Source: a virus (taxonomy: Duplodnaviria; Heunggongvirae; Uroviricota; Caudoviricetes). From it: 64,000 nt of DNA. Each line of letters starts with the position of its first letter. Positions within the stretch are counted from its first letter, which is position 1. The notes beneath the pieces are model-generated. The model made no database searches. It saw nothing but the letters and a program-made list of their open reading frames with translations, and was not told where the DNA came from. Positions 2,363 to 34,718 of the stretch are shown here, one piece after another. Both the position numbers and the translations under genes were made by a program. The stretch is taken from IMG/VR virus record IMGVR_UViG_2675903278_000002. The stretch is one strand, 5' to 3'.

Positions 2363-3505
2363 ATGTCATATTCAACGTTCCGTTTGGGTGCTAATGATGC
2401 AACCAAAGAGCCTATGTTCCTCGGACAATCTGTCAACGTGGCACGTTACGATCAGCAAAAATACCGTGATTTTGAAAAGTTGATTGAACGTCAATTGTCT
2501 TTCTTCTGGCGGCCGGAAGAAGTTGATATTTCGAGCGATCGTATCGACTTCAACACGAAGCTGCGGGACCACGAACGTCACATTTTTCTGAGCAATCTCC
2601 GTTATCAAACGTTACTCGATTCAGTTCAGGGACGTAGTCCAAATGCAACGCTGCTGCCGCTTATCTCTATTCCTGAACTGGAAACGTGGGTTGAAACGTG
2701 GTCTTTCTCTGAGACTATCCATAGCCGCAGCTACACCCACATTATTCGTGGCATGGTGGACGATCCGAGCATTGTTTTTGACGGTATTGTTACGGATGAA
2801 GAAATCATCAACCGAGCGATCAGTATCTCTGCTGAATATGACAGGCTTTATGGGATGACCTGCGAGCGCCAGTCGTTAGGTGAGAAGGAATTTGAGCGTC
2901 TGTACGTAAATGAATATGGCTGGGAGCCATACCCTTTGCACCGTCAGCTTTTCCGCACGTTGGTGTCCATTAATGCGCTTGAGGCGATCCGTTTCTATGT
3001 AAGTTTTGCATGTACGTTTGCCTTTGGCGAACGGAAGTTGCTTGAGGGTAACACCAAAATTATGCGCTTTATTGCCCGTGATGAAGCTCTGCATTGCGAA
3101 GGAACTGAACGCATGATCCGCTTCATGCGTACCGGTCGCGAAGGTTTATTGTGGAAAGAGATTGCTGCTGATGAAGAAAACGTCATTTACGACACCATGA
3201 AATCAGTCGCCGAACAAGAAATGAACTGGGCAGACTATCTCTTCAAAGACGGTTCGATGATTGGTTTAAACGCGGATATTCTCAAAACCTATGTAAAATA
3301 CCGCACCAATCTGGCTATGAATCGTCTTGGCCTGAAGGCTTTATTTCCAGAGGTTACCACCGATCCGCTGGTCTGGATGAACAAGTGGTTGTTAACCGAC
3401 ACACTGCAAATTGCACCACAAGAGGCAGAGCAAAGCACATATCTGGTAGGTCAGATCGATTCTACCGTGGATAAGGCTTCTCTAAGCCAGTTTGCAGACC
3501 TGTAA
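2363..3505 (+). CDS. nrdB: ribonucleoside-diphosphate reductase beta subunit (NrdB)
   Basis: 380 aa; [48 protein letters not shown] as in class Ia NrdB; directly downstream of nrdA; RBS-like GGAAAAACACATG. Confidence 0.96.
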
Positions 3506-3582
3506 ACCGATACAAAGCATTATGTGGCCTGGCAACGCTGGGCCACAATGGATCACAAGAATTAAGAAGGAACAAAACTAGC

Positions 3583-4452
3583 ATGAACTTTACCAAACTG
3601 ACTGACCACCTGAAACTTGCCACCGATCGACTCATTGGATTTAAGCCAGAACCATATGAGTTGCATGAAGGCCATGGTGTAGCCACTGAAAGTATTTACA
3701 AGATGGTCGATCAGTTTCATGAACTCTTCCAGCATCCGAGACGCGTTATGCCGACACCAGAGCTGCTTCGTCTCCGTGCAAGCCTGATTCATGAAGAAGC
3801 TGTAGTGGAAGGTATTCCAGCCGCAATGAATGGGGATATTGAGCAACTGCTGGATGCAATGGCCGACTTTTTATACGTTGGTGTTGGTACGATGGTCGCC
3901 ATCAAAGGTGGTATTTCTACCGGCATGACCTATTACACGCAGGAACAGAGCATTGATCGCTTTATGCAGACAATTTTTGTGCCCGGTAACACTGTTTTCG
4001 ATGATATGGCAATGCCATTTCAGGAAGCTCGTGAGGCGTCATGTATGCTCGAAGAGCTGGCAGATAAACTTGAGAACAAGACTGTTAAGGATTCTGAGCT
4101 GATTCAGGAACTGCGCCGTGTCATGAACAAAATCTATGTGGCGTGCATGATGACCTATCGACTGGCTGATTTCCTCGGTATCAATGTAGTCGAGCTGGTT
4201 GGCGAAATTCATCGGTCTAACATGACAAAATTATGGCCTGCTGATGTTGAGGAACGTCGCCAGGCTGTGGCCAACTGCAAATACGACTCTTCAGATCTGG
4301 GATTCCGCCATGCTGATGGCACCGATAAGATGATCGGTTTTCGAATTTCCGATGGAAAGATTCTGAAGTCTCCAACCTATAGTGATGTCGATTTATCCTC
4401 CTTTGTTGAGCAAGCTAAAGCCTCAGCAATGTACGGAATGATCAAAAAATAA
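3583..4452 (+). CDS. hypothetical protein, possible MazG-like nucleotide pyrophosphohydrolase
   Basis: 289 aa ORF with RBS (AAGGAAC) in the nucleotide-metabolism module; acidic helical segments with E-x-x-E/D spacing; function is a guess. Confidence 0.7.
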   Translation: MNFTKLTDHLKLATDRLIGFKPEPYELHEGHGVATESIYKMVDQFHELFQHPRRVMPTPELLRLRASLIHEEAVVEGIPAAMNGDIEQLLDAMADFLYVGVGTMVAIKGGISTGMTYYTQEQSIDRFMQTIFVPGNTVFDDMAMPFQEAREASCMLEELADKLENKTVKDSELIQELRRVMNKIYVACMMTYRLADFLGINVVELVGEIHRSNMTKLWPADVEERRQAVANCKYDSSDLGFRHADGTDKMIGFRISDGKILKSPTYSDVDLSSFVEQAKASAMYGMIKK

Positions 4453-5728: not shown

Positions 5729-6142
5729 ATGGCAAGAGGTATGTATGTCTTATGCGAAATTGAAGGTGTGCTGGCAAATGCCAGCCATCGTAAATCAGTA
5801 TCTGACGCGGATGCAGGCCAGCTCATTGCCGGTGATGAACTCATTTTCCCCACCAGCCGTATGTTGCGTGGTTTTGCTCGCTCAGGGGCTGAAGTGGTGC
5901 TTATCAGTAGCCGCTCTGAAACTCTTGAAGCGCCAACTAAACGATGGCTGAAAGATTTTGGCGTTGATTATGACTGGCTTCATCTCGTACCGAATGGCAC
6001 CAGTTATGAGAAGCATATTAAGCGCACATTAGCGGAGCATAAAGGCGATCTGCTTATCGCTGCGCTGGTGCACGATCCTCGACTCCGTGCCGCTTTAGCC
6101 GACTCTCACCATCGACCGGTCATCTATGAGGTGAGCAAATGA
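5729..6142 (+). CDS. hypothetical protein
   Basis: ATG one codon after thyA stop, in frame with track ORF 5681..6142; overlaps DHFR start by 4 nt (translational coupling). Confidence 0.55.
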   Translation: MARGMYVLCEIEGVLANASHRKSVSDADAGQLIAGDELIFPTSRMLRGFARSGAEVVLISSRSETLEAPTKRWLKDFGVDYDWLHLVPNGTSYEKHIKRTLAEHKGDLLIAALVHDPRLRAALADSHHRPVIYEVSK

Positions 6143-6615
6143 AGATGATCGCTGCTGTTGGCCGTAACTATGAGATCGGCATAGCGAATGAACTCCCCTG
6201 GCGTTGTTCTACCGATCTGAAGCTATTTAAGAGACTCACCAAAAACGCCACTGTCGTTATGGGGCGTAAAACGATGGAAAGTCTCAAACGCCCTCTTCCA
6301 GAGCGTCATAACCTCGTTTTGACGCGCTCTCATGGCTTTGTACCAAATGGATTCTACCCTGCTGGTGTGGATGATGTGTTGCGATTACCAGAGCCTGTGT
6401 GGGTGATTGGCGGGGAACAAATTTACTCGCTATTCATGCCGCATGTTGAAGAGATTTGGCTCTCCCACATCGGCGTTGATGTGCCAAACGCCGATGCATT
6501 CTTCCCGGCAAGCATGATGCGTAATTTAGGCTTTGTGCCTGTTGAAACAGCTTATACCCAACGAGCCAGCGAGGAAGAGCCTGGCTTTTCGCAGATCGTA
6601 TACAGAAGGTCGTAA
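6139..6615 (+). CDS. folA: dihydrofolate reductase
   Basis: 158 aa; MIAAVGRNYEIGIANELPW and VMGRKTMESL are typical type I DHFR; coupled to flanking genes. Confidence 0.92.
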   Translation: MKMIAAVGRNYEIGIANELPWRCSTDLKLFKRLTKNATVVMGRKTMESLKRPLPERHNLVLTRSHGFVPNGFYPAGVDDVLRLPEPVWVIGGEQIYSLFMPHVEEIWLSHIGVDVPNADAFFPASMMRNLGFVPVETAYTQRASEEEPGFSQIVYRRS

Positions 6616-20146: not shown

Positions 20147-20148
20147 AT

Positions 20149-20400
20149 ATGAGCGACTGGAATATTGCAGCTAAAAGTCAGGAAGAACGGGATAAGGTTA
20201 ACGTTGATCTGGCTGCCAGCGGTGTGGCGTACAAAGAGCGATTGAACATACCTGTCATAGCTGAACAGGTAGCCCGCGAGCAACCAGAGAACCTGCGCAC
20301 CTATTTCATGGAACGGTTACGGCACTACCGGCAGTTAAGCCTCCAGTTGCCAAAAGGAAGCCATCCGGTGTATCAGAACGAGGATGCACCAAGAAAATAA
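20149..20400 (+). CDS. hypothetical protein
   Basis: 83 aa; ATG 2 nt after lipoprotein stop. Confidence 0.55.
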
Positions 20401-20776
20401 CGGCAAGATGGGGAAGACATTAAACATGCTTAACTATCACGACAACACGCGTTCTATGCAGACAATCCGCACCAATACAGCGGTGGTCGATAGCTTTCCT
20501 GTACATACTCAAGGCCGTGAAGATACCGTGGAAGTGCGACGCATGTTGTGTCGCCGGTCACCAGGCCACCAGCACTTCATCGTAACGTTTAAAAGCGATG
20601 TAGAGCGCGCCGAGAAAATCTCTAACTCCACATCTCTGGTTAGTCCGTTGGCGGAGGTTATTGTGCGCAACAATAAGGCGCGCTTTGTCCTTGAGGAGCA
20701 TCATTCTGATTTTAATGAAAAAATTGAGTCAAGCATTTTGCAATATATGAATGGCAAGTTCACGCCACCAATGTGA
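20384..20776 (+). CDS. hypothetical protein
   Basis: 130 aa ORF overlapping previous gene end; start uncertain (internal ATGs at ~20408, ~20426). Confidence 0.5.
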
Positions 20777-20837
20777 TTAGCCCCCAGCGTGGCGCGCCTG
20801 CAAACCCCGCTTTCACAAACTATGCCTTTTCAATGTA

Positions 20838-20857
20838 TACTGTATGAATAAACAGTA
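20838..20857 (+). promoter_or_regulatory. LexA (SOS) box
   Basis: TACTGTATGAATAAACAGTA: CTGT-N8-ACAG in AT-rich context, ~20 nt upstream of the UmuD'-like gene. Confidence 0.75.
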
Positions 20858-20875
20858 TCATTGAGGTAAAACGCT

Positions 20876-21265
20876 ATGGGCTTCCCTTCTCCTGCGGCGG
20901 ATTATGCAGAGAGCCGTATTTCTCTTGATCAGCAACTAATCAGACATCCTTCAGCGACCTACTTCATGCGGGCAGCTGATAGTCATCATCGTGAGGGAAT
21001 ATTACAGGGTGCATTGCTGGTGGTCGATTCCTCACTTACCCCGGTTGATGGTTCTCTGCTTGTATGCGCTCTGGATGGGGAATATCGCGTAAAAAGATAC
21101 CGGAAGTACCCACGTCAGCATCTGGAGGATTTAAGAACCGGTAAGAAGGAAGCATTGCCAAAGGATGACGATGGATGCACGGGCAGCAATGCCGTGTTTG
21201 GTGTGATCACTCACATTATCAACGACGCAAGAAGTGGCGAGTTTGATGATTGTCCCGTGATGTAG
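20876..21265 (+). CDS. UmuD'-like protein (S24 peptidase fold, lacks LexA-like N-terminal arm)
   Basis: 129 aa; begins GFPSPAADYAE...HPSATYF, i.e. where processed UmuD' begins; C-terminal ~35-aa extension. Confidence 0.8.
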   Translation: MGFPSPAADYAESRISLDQQLIRHPSATYFMRAADSHHREGILQGALLVVDSSLTPVDGSLLVCALDGEYRVKRYRKYPRQHLEDLRTGKKEALPKDDDGCTGSNAVFGVITHIINDARSGEFDDCPVM

Positions 21266-21277
21266 GAGAACTGATTA

Positions 21278-21301
21278 GGCGGTGCATTGCACCGCCTTTT
21301 T
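21278..21301 (+). terminator. rho-independent terminator
   Basis: GGCGGTGCA/TGCACCGCC hairpin followed by TTTTT, between the UmuD'-like gene and the convergent apbC stop. Confidence 0.7.
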
Positions 21302-21302
21302 A

Positions 21303-22403
21303 TCACACTGCGCGGAATGCGATTTCGCCAGGTATTACTTCACCTTGCCAATACATTTGGGCAGCAACGCGATCTGCGAGGTCACGATAAATAGCCGTAA
21401 ATTCGCTATCTGGACGACTAATAACGGTTGGTGTTCCGTTATCCAGATCTTCACGAAGAGAGATATGAAGTGGCATTTGGCCTAACAACTGCGTGTTGTA
21501 TTTCTCGGCCAGTTTCTGTGCGCCACCGGTGCCAAAAATTGGCTCGTGATGACCGCAGTTACTGCAAATATGCACACTCATGTTTTCGACGATACCCAGT
21601 ACCGGCACTTCGACTTTTTCGAACATCACAATGCCTTTCTTCGCATCGATCAGCGCGATGTCTTGCGGCGTAGTTACCACAACCGCACCAGTTACAGGAA
21701 TGTTCTGCGCCAGCGTCAACTGAATATCACCAGTGCCCGGCGGCATATCGAGAACGAGATAGTCCAGATCAGGCCATAGAGTTTCCTGCAACATCTGCAT
21801 CAGCGCCTTGCTGGCCATCGGTCCACGCCACACCATTGCATTGTCGTCGGTGACCAGATAACCAATAGAGTTGGTTGCCAGGCCATGAGACATGATAGGT
21901 GCCATGTGAGTACCGTCCGGTGAGGTTGGACGTTGGTTTTCCGCGCCCAGCATGGTTGGAATTGATGGACCATAGATATCGGCATCCAAAATACCAACTT
22001 TCGCACCTTCAGCAGCCAACGCCAGTGCCAGATTTACCGCCGTGGAGGATTTACCTACGCCGCCCTTGCCTGAGCTGACGGCGATAATGTTCTTAACGCC
22101 ATTAATGCCTGGTTGGTTTTTGACGCGCTTAAGCGTGGCAATGTTGTACGACAGCTTCCAGTCAATAGCCTTTGCGCCAGTGATACGGAGCAGATCACCA
22201 CTACATTGCTCTTTCAGGTCTTCAAAAGGCTTATTCCACACGAAAGGCATGATTAGTTCGACATGCAGTGTGTCATCCATCAACGCAACATGGTGTAACG
22301 CTTTAAGCGTAGTCAGGTTGTGTTTCAGGGTTGGGTGCTGAAAATTAGCCAGCGTACCGGCTACCATTGCTCTCAGGGCATCCGGCGATTTGGACTCGCT
22401 CAT
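21303..22403 (-). CDS. apbC: iron-sulfur cluster carrier ATPase ApbC/Mrp (host-type)
   Basis: 366 aa; deviant Walker A AVSSGKGGVGKSST, CSNCGHH motif; from recall, matches enterobacterial ApbC/Mrp closely along its length (not alignment-checked, unlike metG); divergent from metG as in E. coli. Confidence 0.95.
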   Translation of the reverse strand: MSESKSPDALRAMVAGTLANFQHPTLKHNLTTLKALHHVALMDDTLHVELIMPFVWNKPFEDLKEQCSGDLLRITGAKAIDWKLSYNIATLKRVKNQPGINGVKNIIAVSSGKGGVGKSSTAVNLALALAAEGAKVGILDADIYGPSIPTMLGAENQRPTSPDGTHMAPIMSHGLATNSIGYLVTDDNAMVWRGPMASKALMQMLQETLWPDLDYLVLDMPPGTGDIQLTLAQNIPVTGAVVVTTPQDIALIDAKKGIVMFEKVEVPVLGIVENMSVHICSNCGHHEPIFGTGGAQKLAEKYNTQLLGQMPLHISLREDLDNGTPTVISRPDSEFTAIYRDLADRVAAQMYWQGEVIPGEIAFRAV

Positions 22404-22560: not shown

Positions 22561-24594
22561 ATGACCCAAGTCGCGAAGAAAATTCTGGTGACGTGCGCGC
22601 TGCCGTACGCTAACGGCTCAATCCACCTCGGCCATATGCTGGAGCACATCCAGGCTGATGTCTGGGTTCGTTACCAGCGAATGCGCGGCCACGAGGTTAA
22701 TTTCATCTGTGCCGACGATGCCCACGGTACGCCGATCATGCTGAAAGCACAGCAGCTTGGTATCACACCGGAGCAGATGATTGGCGAAATGAGTCAGGAA
22801 CACCAGACTGATTTCGCAGGCTTTAACATCAGCTATGACAACTATCACTCGACGCACAGCGAAGAGAACCGTCAGTTGTCTGAGCTTATCTATACTCGCC
22901 TGAAAGAGAACGGTTTTATTAAAAACCGCACTATCTCTCAGTTGTACGACCCGGAAAAAGGCATGTTCCTGCCGGATCGTTTTGTAAAAGGCACCTGCCC
23001 GAAATGTAAAGCGCCAGATCAATACGGCGATAACTGTGAAGTCTGCGGCGCAACATATAGCCCGACTGAATTGATCGAGCCGAAATCGGTGGTTTCTGGC
23101 GCTACCCCGGTAATGCGTGATTCCGAACACTTCTTCTTTGATCTGCCTTCTTTCAGCGAAATGTTGCAGGCATGGACCCGCAGCGGCGCGTTGCAGGAGC
23201 AGGTGGCGAACAAAATGCAGGAATGGTTTGAATCCGGCCTGCAACAGTGGGATATCTCCCGAGATGCGCCTTACTTCGGTTTTGAAATTCCGAACGCGCC
23301 GGGCAAATATTTCTACGTCTGGCTGGACGCGCCGATTGGCTACATGGGTTCCTTCAAGAATCTGTGCGACAAGCGCGGCGATACCACCAGCTTCGATGAA
23401 TACTGGAAGAAAGACTCCACCGCCGAGCTGTACCACTTCATCGGTAAAGATATTGTTTACTTCCACAGCCTGTTCTGGCCTGCCATGCTGGAAGGCAGCA
23501 ACTTCCGCAAGCCGACCAACCTGTTTGTTCACGGCTATGTGACGGTGAACGGCGCGAAGATGTCCAAGTCTCGCGGCACCTTTATTAAAGCCAGCACCTG
23601 GCTGAATCATTTTGACGCCGACAGCCTGCGTTACTACTACACTGCGAAACTCTCTTCGCGCATTGATGATATCGATCTCAACCTGGAGGATTTCGTTCAG
23701 CGCGTGAATGCCGATATCGTGAACAAAGTGGTTAACCTGGCCTCCCGTAATGCAGGCTTTATCAACAAGCGTTTTGACGGCGTGCTGGCAAGCGAACTGG
23801 CTGACCCGCAACTGTACAAAACCTTTACTGATGCCGCTGAAGTGATTGGCGAAGCATGGGAAAGCCGCGAATTTGGTAAAGCTATCCGTGAAATCATGGC
23901 ATTGGCTGACCTGGCTAACCGCTATGTCGATGAACAGGCTCCGTGGGTGGTGGCGAAGCAGGAAGGACGCGATGCCGATCTGCAGGCGATTTGCTCTATG
24001 GGCATTAACCTGTTCCGCGTGCTGATGACGTACCTGAAGCCGGTACTGCCGAAACTGACTGAACGTGCAGAAGCATTCCTGAATACAGAACTGACCTGGG
24101 ATGGTATCCAGCAACCGCTGCTGGGCCATAAAGTAAATCCGTTCAAGGCACTGTATAACCGCATCGATATGAAGCAGGTTGAAGCACTGGTGGAAGCATC
24201 CAAAGAAGAAGTGAAAGCCACAGCCGCACCGGTAACTGGCCCACTGGCTGACGACCCGATTCAGGAAACTATCACCTTTGACGACTTCGCCAAAGTTGAC
24301 CTGCGCGTGGCGCTGATTGAAAACGCAGAGTTTGTAGAAGGTTCTGACAAACTGCTTCGCCTGACGCTGGATCTCGGTGGTGAAAAGCGTAATGTCTTCT
24401 CAGGCATCCGTTCCGCTTATCCAGATCCACAGGCACTGATTGGTCGTCACACCATTATGGTGGCTAACCTGGCACCACGTAAAATGCGCTTCGGTATCTC
24501 TGAAGGCATGGTGATGGCTGCTGGCCCCGGCGGGAAAGATATCTTCCTGTTAAGCCCGGATGCTGGTGCTAAACCTGGCCACCAGGTTAAGTAA
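22561..24594 (+). CDS. metG: methionyl-tRNA synthetase (host-type)
   Basis: Starts [31 protein letters not shown]..., KMSKS present, ends ...GAKPGHQVK; essentially the E. coli MetG sequence; track ORF 22432 begins upstream in frame, ATG 22561 is the conserved start. Confidence 0.96.
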
Positions 24595-28422: not shown

Positions 28423-28734
28423 ATGAAAAAATCATTGGTTCTTGGTCTGGACAAAGACCAGAAGAGAAAAGAGAAGCCTGCGCTGGTTGCTCAATTAACT
28501 TTGCTGGACATCGTTGCCAATGGAACCTCTATTCGTCTGTTCCGTGAAACAGCGGTGTCTTTCGATAAAAACACCTTTACTCGTTATGTAATGAATGTTC
28601 GTCGCCAGCGTGGAAAAGGCTGGGTGGCATTTCAAAGAATGTGGCCGGAACATCAGCTCGAACTGGCTTTGATGGAAGTTAACCGCGTGGCCCAGCAAGA
28701 GATTCAGAGAGCATCAGTGATGGCAATAGCCTGA
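28423..28734 (+). CDS. hypothetical small basic protein
   Basis: ~103 aa from ATG 28423, in frame with track ORF 28393; terminator follows. Confidence 0.6.
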   Translation: MKKSLVLGLDKDQKRKEKPALVAQLTLLDIVANGTSIRLFRETAVSFDKNTFTRYVMNVRRQRGKGWVAFQRMWPEHQLELALMEVNRVAQQEIQRASVMAIA

Positions 28735-32125: not shown

Positions 32126-32138
32126 TTTTAAAGCTCCT

Positions 32139-32162
32139 TTAAAGCGCCCACTATGGGCGCTT
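32139..32162 (-). terminator. intercistronic hairpin (attenuator-like)
   Basis: AAGCGCCCACTATGGGCGCTT between the 216-aa gene stop and the next RBS. Confidence 0.5.
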
Positions 32163-32173
32163 GATTCCATTAA

Positions 32174-32824
32174 TTACGCTTTGAAAGCATCAGCTAAATA
32201 ATTGTAGAAATCATTTTTAATGAAGCGATATTGCTGAGTACCAGCTTTCGCGCTCCCAGCTCCTTTGACTTTTTCAACAAGTCCAAGACGTTCGCAAAGA
32301 TTGATCAACTGGTTGGCTTGAGTATAGCCAGCGTCCAATTTAATTTCGCACGCTTTTTTCGCTTCATTCATTAAATCGAAAACAGCGCCATTGGTGAACG
32401 TGTCGATCTCGTCGTTAATCATATCGATTAATGCGAATACACGAGATCCGGACATATCAGCGACGGAATAAACACACTTTCCAGCTTTAATGGATTTAAC
32501 CAGATAAACCAGTTTTTCCAGAGAATAACTATTAGTCATTGCATCACGGAAAAATACTTCTGGCGCTTGTTTGCTTGCTTTGATCGCATAGTAGAAAACA
32601 GAGCACAATTTTTCGTCTTCTACAGCGTTTACAACGTTGTTGATGAAGTAAGCAAGTTTAGTGGTTGCAGCTTGCATATTTGCTTTGTCTGCTTTGGTGT
32701 GCGTGCCATTTTTATAATGTTCGTTATATGTTTGAGTTGCCAGATCTGCTTTTTCGCGCAGTTCATCGGATACAATGGAAGCAGCTTCAATGATGGATTT
32801 TTTAGAAATGATAATGTTAGCCAT
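32174..32824 (-). CDS. hypothetical protein (216 aa)
   Basis: Long minus-strand ORF, AT-richer by eye, AT-rich promoter-like region upstream (32825-33070); no recognisable domain. Confidence 0.7.
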   Translation of the reverse strand: MANIIISKKSIIEAASIVSDELREKADLATQTYNEHYKNGTHTKADKANMQAATTKLAYFINNVVNAVEDEKLCSVFYYAIKASKQAPEVFFRDAMTNSYSLEKLVYLVKSIKAGKCVYSVADMSGSRVFALIDMINDEIDTFTNGAVFDLMNEAKKACEIKLDAGYTQANQLINLCERLGLVEKVKGAGSAKAGTQQYRFIKNDFYNYLADAFKA

Positions 32825-33069
32825 GATAATTTTTCCTTATGTAAATTTAAAATTTATTGTCGTTAGCGTCTTCGCTTTCGACGAGTTCAATTATCGATAT
32901 GCGAAAAAAGATTGCAAGTGTTTTTTTTAAATTTTTTGCAGGGATGAAAGTCCTAGAAATAAAAGCGAGATCGTCGAAGGTGTTCCCTAAATAAATAATT
33001 GATTGCGGCTTTAGACCTTATATATATTTAGGTTATTTGATTTGTAGATATAAAGAAGTGATGTGAAAA

Positions 33070-33098
33070 ATAATAACCGGACTTAGCCGGTTATTAAC
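33070..33098. terminator. bidirectional hairpin terminator
   Basis: AATAACCGG-ACTTAG-CCGGTTATT between the two minus-strand cassettes. Confidence 0.6.
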
Positions 33099-33107
33099 CT
33101 TATAGAT

Positions 33108-33416
33108 TTATTGAACAGACTCTACAGCCTTACGATTGGTGTCAAATAGCGCATCAACGAACTGTGCCGATGACTCGCTAGATTCGCAATCCAACATTGC
33201 CCGTTCTTCATTTGCCACTTTCTTACACAGTTCCACATTCTCACCTATCGCTTTTCCTGCTTTTACGGCTGCCGAAAATTGATACATGCAAACTGATACA
33301 TTCTGAGACGTTGAGCACACGTCATTCATCAGCGACTGAATGACAGGCTTATAGTCCATTGCATTTGCCGCAACTGAGCAAAGTAAAAATAATGGTGGTA
33401 ACAATATCGATTTCAT
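33108..33416 (-). CDS. putative secreted/periplasmic small protein
   Basis: 102 aa; N-terminal signal peptide MKSILLPPLFLLCSVAANA; several Cys. Confidence 0.6.
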   Translation of the reverse strand: MKSILLPPLFLLCSVAANAMDYKPVIQSLMNDVCSTSQNVSVCMYQFSAAVKAGKAIGENVELCKKVANEERAMLDCESSESSAQFVDALFDTNRKAVESVQ

Positions 33417-33419
33417 AAC

Positions 33420-33944
33420 TCAAAAAGGCAAAATTCGTTCAACCCAATCGAACAAAACAACTATTTTTCTACCGTTCTCGACACGTAGTGTAACCTGACA
33501 AGCATCTGCGCCTGCTGACACCCCCTCAATTTCACGGCCATCCGCCATGTACACCCTTATAGATTTGTTTGCTTTGTAGGCTTGGTTGCAAATTGCAAAA
33601 AAATCGCGGCGTGATGGCCGATTATCGACATAATCAGGGTGAACTGTTAGTCGACCTTTGAAATCGTGAGCGATACTGTCAACCACACCTGATTCAATTG
33701 TACTAATGCGTTCAAGTGGGAGCCTTATACGATTTTCTTTGTCAAAAGGGGCTGGGCAAAGGTCAACTTTGTTACGAGATGGCATGAGGCCATAAACGTA
33801 CATGCAAAACGCCTGGCCATCTTCGAGAGTGACCCTTACAGGAATTTGTTCTCTGCGCCAGAACATCAGTAGTTTTTCAACGTTAGTGTAATCTCGCGGC
33901 CAGAGTTCAGCTTGGATACCGTAGGTAATATCTTTGGTTGTCAT
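33420..33944 (-). CDS. hypothetical protein
   Basis: ~174 aa from internal Met (MTTKDITYG...) of track ORF 33420..34022; ATG 1 nt after the upstream lipoprotein gene stop. Confidence 0.55.
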   Translation of the reverse strand: MTTKDITYGIQAELWPRDYTNVEKLLMFWRREQIPVRVTLEDGQAFCMYVYGLMPSRNKVDLCPAPFDKENRIRLPLERISTIESGVVDSIAHDFKGRLTVHPDYVDNRPSRRDFFAICNQAYKANKSIRVYMADGREIEGVSAGADACQVTLRVENGRKIVVLFDWVERILPF

Positions 33945-33948
33945 ATCA

Positions 33949-34371
33949 TCACAGAGTTGTTGGCAGAATGTCGATGTCACCAGAATTGCTGGTAAACACC
34001 CTGAACGCTTTTGTGTCTCCATTCTTCAGAGTCGTTTCTCGCTCTTGACGAGCGGGGTTTAGAGCACATAAACCTGCACCTTCAAGAGATGCACCCACAA
34101 TTAATTCTCCGGCATTTAAATGGAAAGTCGCTTTTTCGCCTGTAGCCAGTTTTGCGACAGTTTCGCCGTTGATGAAAATGGAAGCATCACATCCAGCTCC
34201 TACAAAACCTGTGTCTCTCATTACCACCAACGTAGCTGGCGCTGCGCTTTGATACTTGAACACTTTGGCCTGCGGTGCTGGTTTGGCGTCATGGATTGAT
34301 ATTGGGTGTGATTGGCACGCGGCAAGCATCAACACTGGTAACGTTAGTAGAGGGAGAAGCGAGTATTTCAT
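33949..34371 (-). CDS. putative lipoprotein (candidate superinfection-exclusion protein)
   Basis: ~140 aa from internal Met (MKYSLLPLLTLPVLMLAACQ...); lipobox LAAC; function inferred by analogy. Confidence 0.6.
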   Translation of the reverse strand: MKYSLLPLLTLPVLMLAACQSHPISIHDAKPAPQAKVFKYQSAAPATLVVMRDTGFVGAGCDASIFINGETVAKLATGEKATFHLNAGELIVGASLEGAGLCALNPARQERETTLKNGDTKAFRVFTSNSGDIDILPTTL

Positions 34372-34439
34372 GATAGTTTTAGAACAGAAAGTGAACAGTA
34401 TGGGAGACTTCATCTTTGTCTCCCTAATTGATAGCGTGA

Positions 34440-34718
34440 TTATTTTAATCTGCTTAATAGCGTTTCGAGATCTTCCTTTGTCATATTAGAGTTCTCATAG
34501 ATACGCATGATTTTCTCACGAGTCTTAGCGGAAGCCCCGACAGAAGATATAACCTTGTCAAAGTCGGCCATTGTCAATTGTTCCAGAATGGTATTTATGA
34601 CTTCAGCCTTAGACATTTTGATATTTTTTTCTTTTAGTTTCACTTGAAACTTTCCAAGTTTGTCATTGGCCTTATCAGACAATGCTACCTGACAGTAAGT
34701 TGTTTTCTTTTCACTCAT
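34440..34718 (-). CDS. hypothetical protein
   Basis: 92 aa ORF immediately downstream of the helicase gene on the minus strand. Confidence 0.55.
   Translation of the reverse strand: MSEKKTTYCQVALSDKANDKLGKFQVKLKEKNIKMSKAEVINTILEQLTMADFDKVISSVGASAKTREKIMRIYENSNMTKEDLETLLSRLK

Follow-up and report, generated by a model that had tools for sequence, protein, structure and literature searches.

A predicted LexA-controlled gene for a ready-processed UmuD' homologue, humD, on an SSU5-like Escherichia coli phage-plasmid

A 64,000-nucleotide stretch of tailed-phage DNA (Caudoviricetes; IMG/VR record IMGVR_UViG_2675903278_000002), hereafter referred to as the window, carries at positions 20838-21265 a LexA (SOS) box followed by a short gene, humD, whose product resembles UmuD', the form that UmuD of Escherichia coli takes after RecA-stimulated cleavage. 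An earlier note on this DNA, made from the letters alone, had described a perfect SOS box in front of a 129-residue protein that begins where UmuD' begins, lacks the self-cleaving N-terminal arm and carries an extra C-terminal extension; it had likened the protein to HumD of phage P1 and had left open whether the gene belongs to a mobile element or to its host. The analysis presented here bears out this description point by point and settles the origin in favor of the element. In our judgment, the locus is most probably humD of an SSU5-like E. coli phage-plasmid, a LexA-repressed unit of a single gene that encodes a UmuD' homologue in an already processed form.

The humD gene occupies positions 20876-21265 on the plus strand, starts with ATG and encodes 129 residues. 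A sigma-70-like promoter is predicted just upstream (20812-20841, plus strand), in which the −35 element TTCACA (20812-20817) and the −10 element TATACT (20836-20841) are separated by an 18-nucleotide spacer and together match the consensus at 10 of 12 positions, the −10 element overlapping the LexA box. A Shine-Dalgarno motif, GAGG, can be read from the sequence at 20863-20866 on the same strand, 9 nucleotides before the ATG, and is followed at 20867-20869 by an in-frame TAA, three codons (9 nucleotides) before the start. Due to this stop codon, neither an N-terminal arm nor a longer product can be encoded, and a protein initiated further upstream was therefore ruled out. Downstream of the gene, a terminator scan identified an intrinsic terminator at 21277-21305 (plus strand), in which TTTTAT follows a 9-bp stem (21277-21297), 7 of whose pairs are G-C, and terminators are annotated at the equivalent place in phages N15 and phiKO2. 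The terminator marks humD as a single-gene unit, and the predicted promoter and operator, ribosome-binding site, gene and terminator would together make up a compact cassette.

The LexA box, TACTGTATGAATAAACAGTA at 20838-20857 (listed without a strand), matches TACTGTAT-N6-ACAGTA with 0 mismatches. It shares 17 of 20 positions with the consensus TACTG(TA)5CAGTA, and the three that differ are all in the central spacer. It is the sole CTGT-N8-ACAG site with an A/T spacer in the 64 kb; when two mismatches are allowed, dinucleotide shuffles of the window average 0.26 sites, and the observed count was not attained in any of 100 shuffles. Another CTGT-N8-ACAG sequence, CTGTTCCGTGAAACAG at 28537-28552, was considered as a LexA box and rejected as probably a chance occurrence, because its spacer is GC-rich and two or more matches arise in 14 of 100 shuffles. 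The humD box ends 18 nucleotides before the reading frame, and its position relative to the ATG, −36, is about the same as that of the E. coli K-12 umuDC operator TACTGTATATAAAAACAGTA, at −37. By the type of box and its position in the promoter, humD is thus a predicted member of the SOS regulon, and host LexA would presumably bind at 20838-20857.

The box is also conserved. All 9 distinct contexts examined retain it; 7 of them are phages or phage-plasmids and 2 are chromosomal prophages, for which 8 near-identical loci were sampled. A P1-like element (locus L013) has the identical box in front of its humD, and related boxes precede the humD homologues of P1, Cyrano, N15, phiKO2, HK639, HK140 and of Salmonella and Citrobacter prophages; those of P1 and phiKO2 were annotated as LexA sites by the depositors of the records. 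The distance to the start codon is 32 to 62 nucleotides in P1, Cyrano, N15, phiKO2 and HK639. In HK140 and the Citrobacter prophages the box precedes a small upstream open reading frame (ORF), and in the Salmonella prophages it lies in an intergenic region shared with the divergent gene dinI. The Citrobacter ORF between box and humD is 80 residues long. The prophage genes, found around positions 3440-4390 of loci L014-L021, are HumD-family genes located at the tail-fibre end and divergent from a dinI homologue.

The encoded protein is readily assigned to a family. The NCBIfam equivalog model NF051876, "HumD family translesion DNA polymerase", gives a score of 219.7 bits, above its cut-off of 120, with residues 1-129 aligned to all of profile positions 1-129 of 129. 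The more general Pfam model PF00717 (Peptidase_S24) is matched with 38.2 bits, above its gathering score of 23.3, while the UmuD subfamily model NF007621 / PRK10276 reaches 87.9 bits, which is below its cut-off of 110. Among solved structures, the top matches are UmuD' (1UMU, with an E value of 3.5e-23, and 1I4V) and UmuD (8GMT). The fold assignment rests on this similarity to solved UmuD', since an AlphaFold2 model computed from a 54-sequence family alignment was unusable (mean predicted local distance difference test score 41.5, predicted template-modelling score 0.29), probably because no sequence in that alignment falls below 67% identity to the query.

The N-terminus of the protein, MGFPSP, places residue 2 opposite UmuD Gly25, the first residue of UmuD', and exactly one residue precedes GFPSP in 106 of the 120 representatives of the HumD family. 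According to the general methionine aminopeptidase rule, an initiator methionine that precedes glycine is expected to be removed, and removal of Met1 would yield the exact UmuD' N-terminus. When aligned with UmuD of K-12 and six homologues from phages, the protein departs from UmuD in three respects: the 24-residue arm is missing, 4 residues are inserted, and the C-terminus extends 10 residues beyond the end of UmuD. E. coli UmuD' (1UMU, 1I4V, 8GMT) and HumD share approximately 43% identity over residues 2-118 as well as the Gly25 start and the serine and lysine positions discussed below. However, UmuD' derives from a 139-residue precursor through RecA-stimulated cleavage, whereas HumD is encoded directly; and unlike UmuD, HumD is not part of an operon with umuC, and it carries the 4-residue insert and the 10-residue tail, which is conserved. 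With neither arm nor cleavage site, HumD does not qualify as UmuD proper, that is, as the autoproteolytic subunit of DNA polymerase V (Pol V).

We also considered whether HumD could be an active self-cleaving S24 protease or a LexA-like repressor. Such an activity would agree with the Peptidase_S24 match, with the names that relatives carry in databases ("LexA family transcriptional regulator", "S24 family peptidase") and with the presence of both residues of the catalytic pair, for the alignment places Ser36 and Lys73 at UmuD Ser60 and Lys97, and the Ser/Lys dyad is thus intact in the window copy. However, HumD has no N-terminal DNA-binding domain and no arm with a cleavage site, and the reading frame is closed upstream; the LexA model TIGR00498 scores just 27.9 bits, below its cut-off of 110.95, and covers the C-terminal domain only (profile positions 91-166). 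The missing DNA-binding domain and the sub-threshold score led us to reject a LexA-like repressor. Across the 121 aligned sequences (the window protein and 120 cluster representatives), the lysine is retained in 118, whereas the nucleophile position holds serine in 79, threonine in 40 and alanine in 2, so that 42 of 121 have threonine or alanine; in the HK639 homologue, methionine replaces the lysine. These replacements suggest a relaxed need for catalysis, and the family appears to tolerate loss of the dyad, as would be expected of proteins that have nothing left to cleave. Taken together, we consider a protease or repressor function highly improbable. The gene itself is under strong purifying selection, as indicated by a ratio of nonsynonymous to synonymous substitution rates (dN/dS) of 0.05 relative to P1 humD, with a dS of 0.73.

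The closest relatives reinforce the identification as HumD, the family that the earlier note had named. In tblastn searches of phage records, CYRAN_98 of phage Cyrano is 99% identical to the window protein, and HumD of P1, P7, SJ46, RCS47 and D6 are 92-93% identical, followed by N15 gp26 and phiKO2 gp23 at 69-73% and by the HK140 and HK639 proteins at 65% (tblastn and alignment). A protein search returned 578 relatives at E<=1e-5, many of which are already named as HumD family, with the top matches coming from Escherichia, Salmonella, Citrobacter, Klebsiella, Enterobacter, Kluyvera and Trabulsiella. In a library clustered at 50% identity, 10 representatives fall below 1e-30, so the close HumD group is small; however, 21 representatives among the matches listed start with MGFPSP, and pre-truncated UmuD' homologues therefore reach further out. 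P1/P7 HumD (P1 gp103, YP_006569) is the nearest characterized counterpart, being likewise 129 residues long with the MGFPSP start and the same tail. The P1 gene also resembles that of the window in the distance between box and ATG, in the absence of an adjacent umuC, in having hot just upstream and in being carried by a phage that lives as a plasmid, and the humD DNA of the window, promoter region included, shares 86-89% identity with that of P1 and of a P1-like element. The more distant homologues from N15, phiKO2, HK140, HK639 and enterobacterial prophages (65-73% identical) share the truncated start, the tail, the upstream LexA box, the downstream terminator and the lack of umuC, but their place is the tail-fibre end of genomes of the lambdoid or N15-like type, often in divergent orientation to dinI, and they have threonine at the nucleophile position where the window protein has serine. 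The plasmid- or integrative-element-borne mucAB, impAB, samAB and rumAB systems are similar in being mobile and in encoding SOS-controlled accessory proteins of the UmuD family; unlike humD, they encode a full-length, cleavable UmuD homologue together with a UmuC-type polymerase of their own.

Expression data exist for the Cyrano orthologue. They come from published RNA sequencing, re-analyzed for Cyrano (S1 Table of PMC9928086), and are expressed as log2 of fragments per kilobase per million (fpkm). CYRAN_98 stands at 7.44/6.94 in lysogeny broth (LB), at 9.56/9.89 (B1) and 9.14/9.03 (B6) in bacteria-only samples, and at 11.37/11.30 (MB1) and 12.12/12.31 (MB6) in samples from macrophages, a setting described as genotoxic and SOS-inducing for the strain (PMC9928086). 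The rise from LB to macrophages at 6 h thus amounts to about 5 log2 units (~30-fold). Its neighbors do not follow, the apbC homologue changing from 6.7 to 5.9 and the metG homologue from 4.0 to 3.1. The Cyrano apbC copy is, for its part, expressed ~9-fold above background in lysogens. The profile of CYRAN_98, although not a lexA-specific comparison, fits a gene that is independently controlled and damage-inducible. Together with the conservation of the box, it lends indirect support to the predicted binding of LexA in the window.

The element that carries humD can be named with some precision. A 701-nucleotide query (20700-21400) covering humD and its flanks is 100% identical to plasmid p2 of E. 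coli E03, a circular molecule of 109.8 kb in which the humD product is WP_053272004.1, named "HumD family translesion DNA polymerase" in RefSeq. Most of the window aligns to p2 at ~99% identity in five colinear pieces; the sole departure lies at 32129-34465, where ~1 kb at 91% identity is followed by ~1.35 kb without a match. The genes of p2 comprise nrdAB, thyA, dfrA51, terminase, portal, capsid, tape measure, tail, tRNA, dnaE, recA, repA and parB genes, and the element also encodes a DnaB-like helicase, a ligase and a 3'-5' exonuclease; in Cyrano the corresponding protein, CYRAN_77, is named as the epsilon subunit of DNA polymerase III (Pol III). A dihydrofolate reductase ORF at 6139-6615 (plus strand), which is annotated on p2 as the trimethoprim-resistance gene dfrA51, shares a block of nucleotide-metabolism genes with nrdA, nrdB and the thymidylate synthase gene. 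Phage Cyrano (pLF82) has been described as an SSU5-like phage-plasmid that makes virions and is induced by ciprofloxacin. Gene content and similarity mark the window as an E. coli phage-plasmid of the SSU5-like type, related to Cyrano. A large survey of phage-plasmids, available as a preprint, makes no mention of UmuD, SOS or LexA.

Immediately downstream of humD lie apbC (21303-22403, minus strand) and metG (22561-24594, plus strand), and it was this host-like block that had left the origin of the gene in doubt. Both are core E. coli genes, the apbC-metG DNA being matched in 5426 of 5426 genomes, and humD could on this ground have been taken for a normal chromosomal gene beside them. However, the chromosomal apbC adjoins yehE, with no humD there, and the chromosomal copies of apbC-metG are only ~90% identical to those of the window; it follows that humD is borne by the element, and the apbC and metG genes of the window are second copies, which form cargo of the phage-plasmid. 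At an identity of at least 95%, apbC-metG occurs in 216 of the 5,639 matching records, and plasmids account for 223 of the 5,653 matched places. Conversely, humD-like DNA is present in 720 of 5426 complete E. coli genomes (~13%), and 650 of its 763 places are on plasmids; one full-length chromosomal match that was inspected proved to lie inside a P1-like element with the gene order hot-humD-phd-doc-lpa. The window itself combines humD with phage structural genes, repA and parB, and is ~99% identical to the 109.8-kb plasmid. A chromosomal origin, which the earlier note had kept in view, can thus be regarded as refuted. According to Tam et al. (2024 medRxiv), as cited in PMC12452169, metG borne by phage-plasmids is tied to the survival of Shigella sonnei exposed to antimicrobials.

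Upstream of humD, the phage-plasmid is a mosaic. The gene hot, which encodes a homologue of the theta subunit of Pol III (Pfam DNA_pol3_theta, 116 bits), is located at 20149-20400 on the plus strand, 476 nucleotides before humD. Between them lies a 130-residue ORF of the phrog_2594 family (20384-20776, plus strand), which overlaps the end of hot by 17 nucleotides, has no Pfam match, and takes the place occupied in P1 by lxr on the minus strand. The DNA common to P1 and the window consists of hot (20147-20403, 93%) and of humD with its operator (20823-21264, 86%), and the P1-like element with the identical box is 89.5% identical to the window from 20770 onward. The alignments with P1-like elements thus begin at about 20770-20823. 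In Cyrano and most other SSU5-like plasmids the alignment starts only at ~20829, 9 nucleotides before the box, and the −35 region is different, which puts the operator at a mosaic junction. Downstream, the captured apbC-metG pair of the window contrasts with phd-doc in P1, and the carriers themselves differ, the window being an SSU5-like siphovirus phage-plasmid and P1 a P1-like myovirus.

No umuC gene accompanies humD. With E. coli UmuC as the tblastn query, neither the window nor the complete 109.8-kb sister plasmid yielded an E value better than 0.7, and no umuC is annotated; nor does umuC lie beside the humD homologue in P1, N15, phiKO2, HK140, HK639 or the Salmonella and Citrobacter prophages. 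An element that lacks umuC while encoding DnaE, a DnaB-like helicase, a ligase, RecA and an epsilon-like exonuclease raises the possibility that HumD works chiefly at the replisome of that element and not with host UmuC, as a damage-induced brake or manager that binds the alpha, epsilon or beta subunit of Pol III, contacts that have been reported for UmuD and UmuD'. This would explain why humD travels together with hot, a linkage that recurs in P1 and P1-like elements, and umuD products reportedly bind the alpha-beta complex (work attributed to Silva et al., 2012, in NAR). On the other hand, the linkage is not universal, since Cyrano and most other SSU5-like plasmids have humD in common with the window yet differ from it upstream of 20829, and since N15, phiKO2 and chromosomal prophages have humD without hot and without a dnaE of their own, usually beside dinI; moreover, P1 HumD is reported to act in UmuC-dependent SOS mutagenesis. 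A role at the element's own replisome is the main rival to the interpretation that we favor, but, weakened by the homologues that occur without hot or their own dnaE, it appears rather unlikely.

The interpretation that we favor, a pre-processed UmuD' under LexA control, draws instead on what is reported for P1. P1 HumD is reported to stand in for UmuD', as a functional homologue of proteins of that type, and to promote SOS mutagenesis (McLenigan et al. 1999, J Bacteriol 181:7005). In the words of a passage in PMC7092418, it is an "already activated, shorter version of UmuD". By analogy, humD of the phage-plasmid would be kept low in undamaged cells by host LexA bound to the box that overlaps the −10 element and the transcription start. 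Upon DNA damage, activated RecA would bring about self-cleavage of LexA, and humD would be transcribed. HumD would need no RecA-mediated self-cleavage of its own, as loss of Met1 would leave an N-terminus equivalent to UmuD' Gly25; it could therefore dimerize at once and join host UmuC, forming a Pol V-like translesion polymerase that skips the delay imposed by UmuD processing. A need for host UmuC is suggested by the lack of a UmuC homologue on the element together with the reports on P1 HumD, and the partnership is accordingly put forward here as a likely one. The benefit would probably lie in the replication of damaged DNA of the element or the host, and the cost in extra mutagenesis.

Alternatively, HumD might be an inhibitor that forms heterodimers with host UmuD or UmuD', or titrates UmuC or RecA filaments, and thereby dampens host Pol V or the SOS response instead of favoring translesion synthesis. 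The chromosomal-prophage homologue, which is divergent from dinI and shares one LexA box with this gene, whose product binds RecA filaments, would be in keeping with such a role, and a different activity could stem from the conserved tail, which UmuD' lacks. However, the title of the P1 work and later summaries state that HumD facilitates SOS mutagenesis, and the window protein is 92% identical to the P1 protein. We therefore view inhibition as having a small chance of being correct, distinctly smaller than that of the replisome role discussed above.

Several observations weigh against a LexA-repressed UmuD' that works with host UmuC, and they keep our confidence in it short of firm. The promoter match is weak, as shuffled sequence yields about as many sites. 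The macrophage RNA sequencing has no lexA(Ind-) control and is thus not a clean SOS experiment, and the spacer of the Cyrano box differs from that of the window box. Moreover, the expression of CYRAN_98 in LB is already ~15 times the Cyrano background, a substantial level which implies that repression may be leaky. The element has its own DnaE, theta, epsilon-like exonuclease and RecA, so the real partner of HumD might not be host UmuC. Finally, the protein has a conserved C-terminal tail that is without a counterpart in UmuD'.

This tail is the sole part of the finding that still lacks an explanation. The protein ends in NDARSGEFDDCPVM, and the family shares the pattern NDARxGEFDDCPV(M/I/L), which is absent from UmuD'. 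The stretch SGEFDDCPVM (residues 120-129; window positions 21235-21262) is nearly invariant across the family. Each position from E122 to V128 is at least 90% conserved among 54 sequences, the form EFDDCPV(M/I/L) is found in about 100 of the 120 representatives, and homologues that are only 40-52% identical retain the variants EFDDVPVM, EFDDTPF, EFDEIPCI and EFDERPCI. When placed in register from the C-terminus, HumD EFDDCPVM (residues 122-129) resembles the tip of E. coli SSB, DFDDDIPF (MDFDDDIPF). The tip of HumD could conceivably be a functional copy of the C-terminal docking peptide of SSB, a likeness that was noticed post hoc and that we hold to be doubtful as a guide to function. If it were true, the tail would be an address tag for the replisome and repair proteins that bind the SSB tip, or a competitor of SSB for them, and phage Pol V complexes would gain a recruitment route that is missing from host UmuD'.

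As it stands, humD matters little in itself. The gene is already known: its family has a curated NCBI equivalog model and was reportedly characterized in 1999, and RefSeq names the identical locus. What the comparison brings out is that SSU5-like phage-plasmids and P1-like elements share a humD module under predicted SOS control, accompanied in this window by hot, and that a humD-like gene is carried by roughly 13% of complete E. coli genomes, mostly on plasmids. Such elements are watched clinically, as the neighboring cargo genes metG and dfrA51 are linked to antimicrobial survival and to trimethoprim resistance, respectively. With these genes on the same replicon, a putative damage-induced, pre-activated mutagenesis factor may therefore be relevant to the SOS response provoked by antibiotics and to the evolution of resistance.

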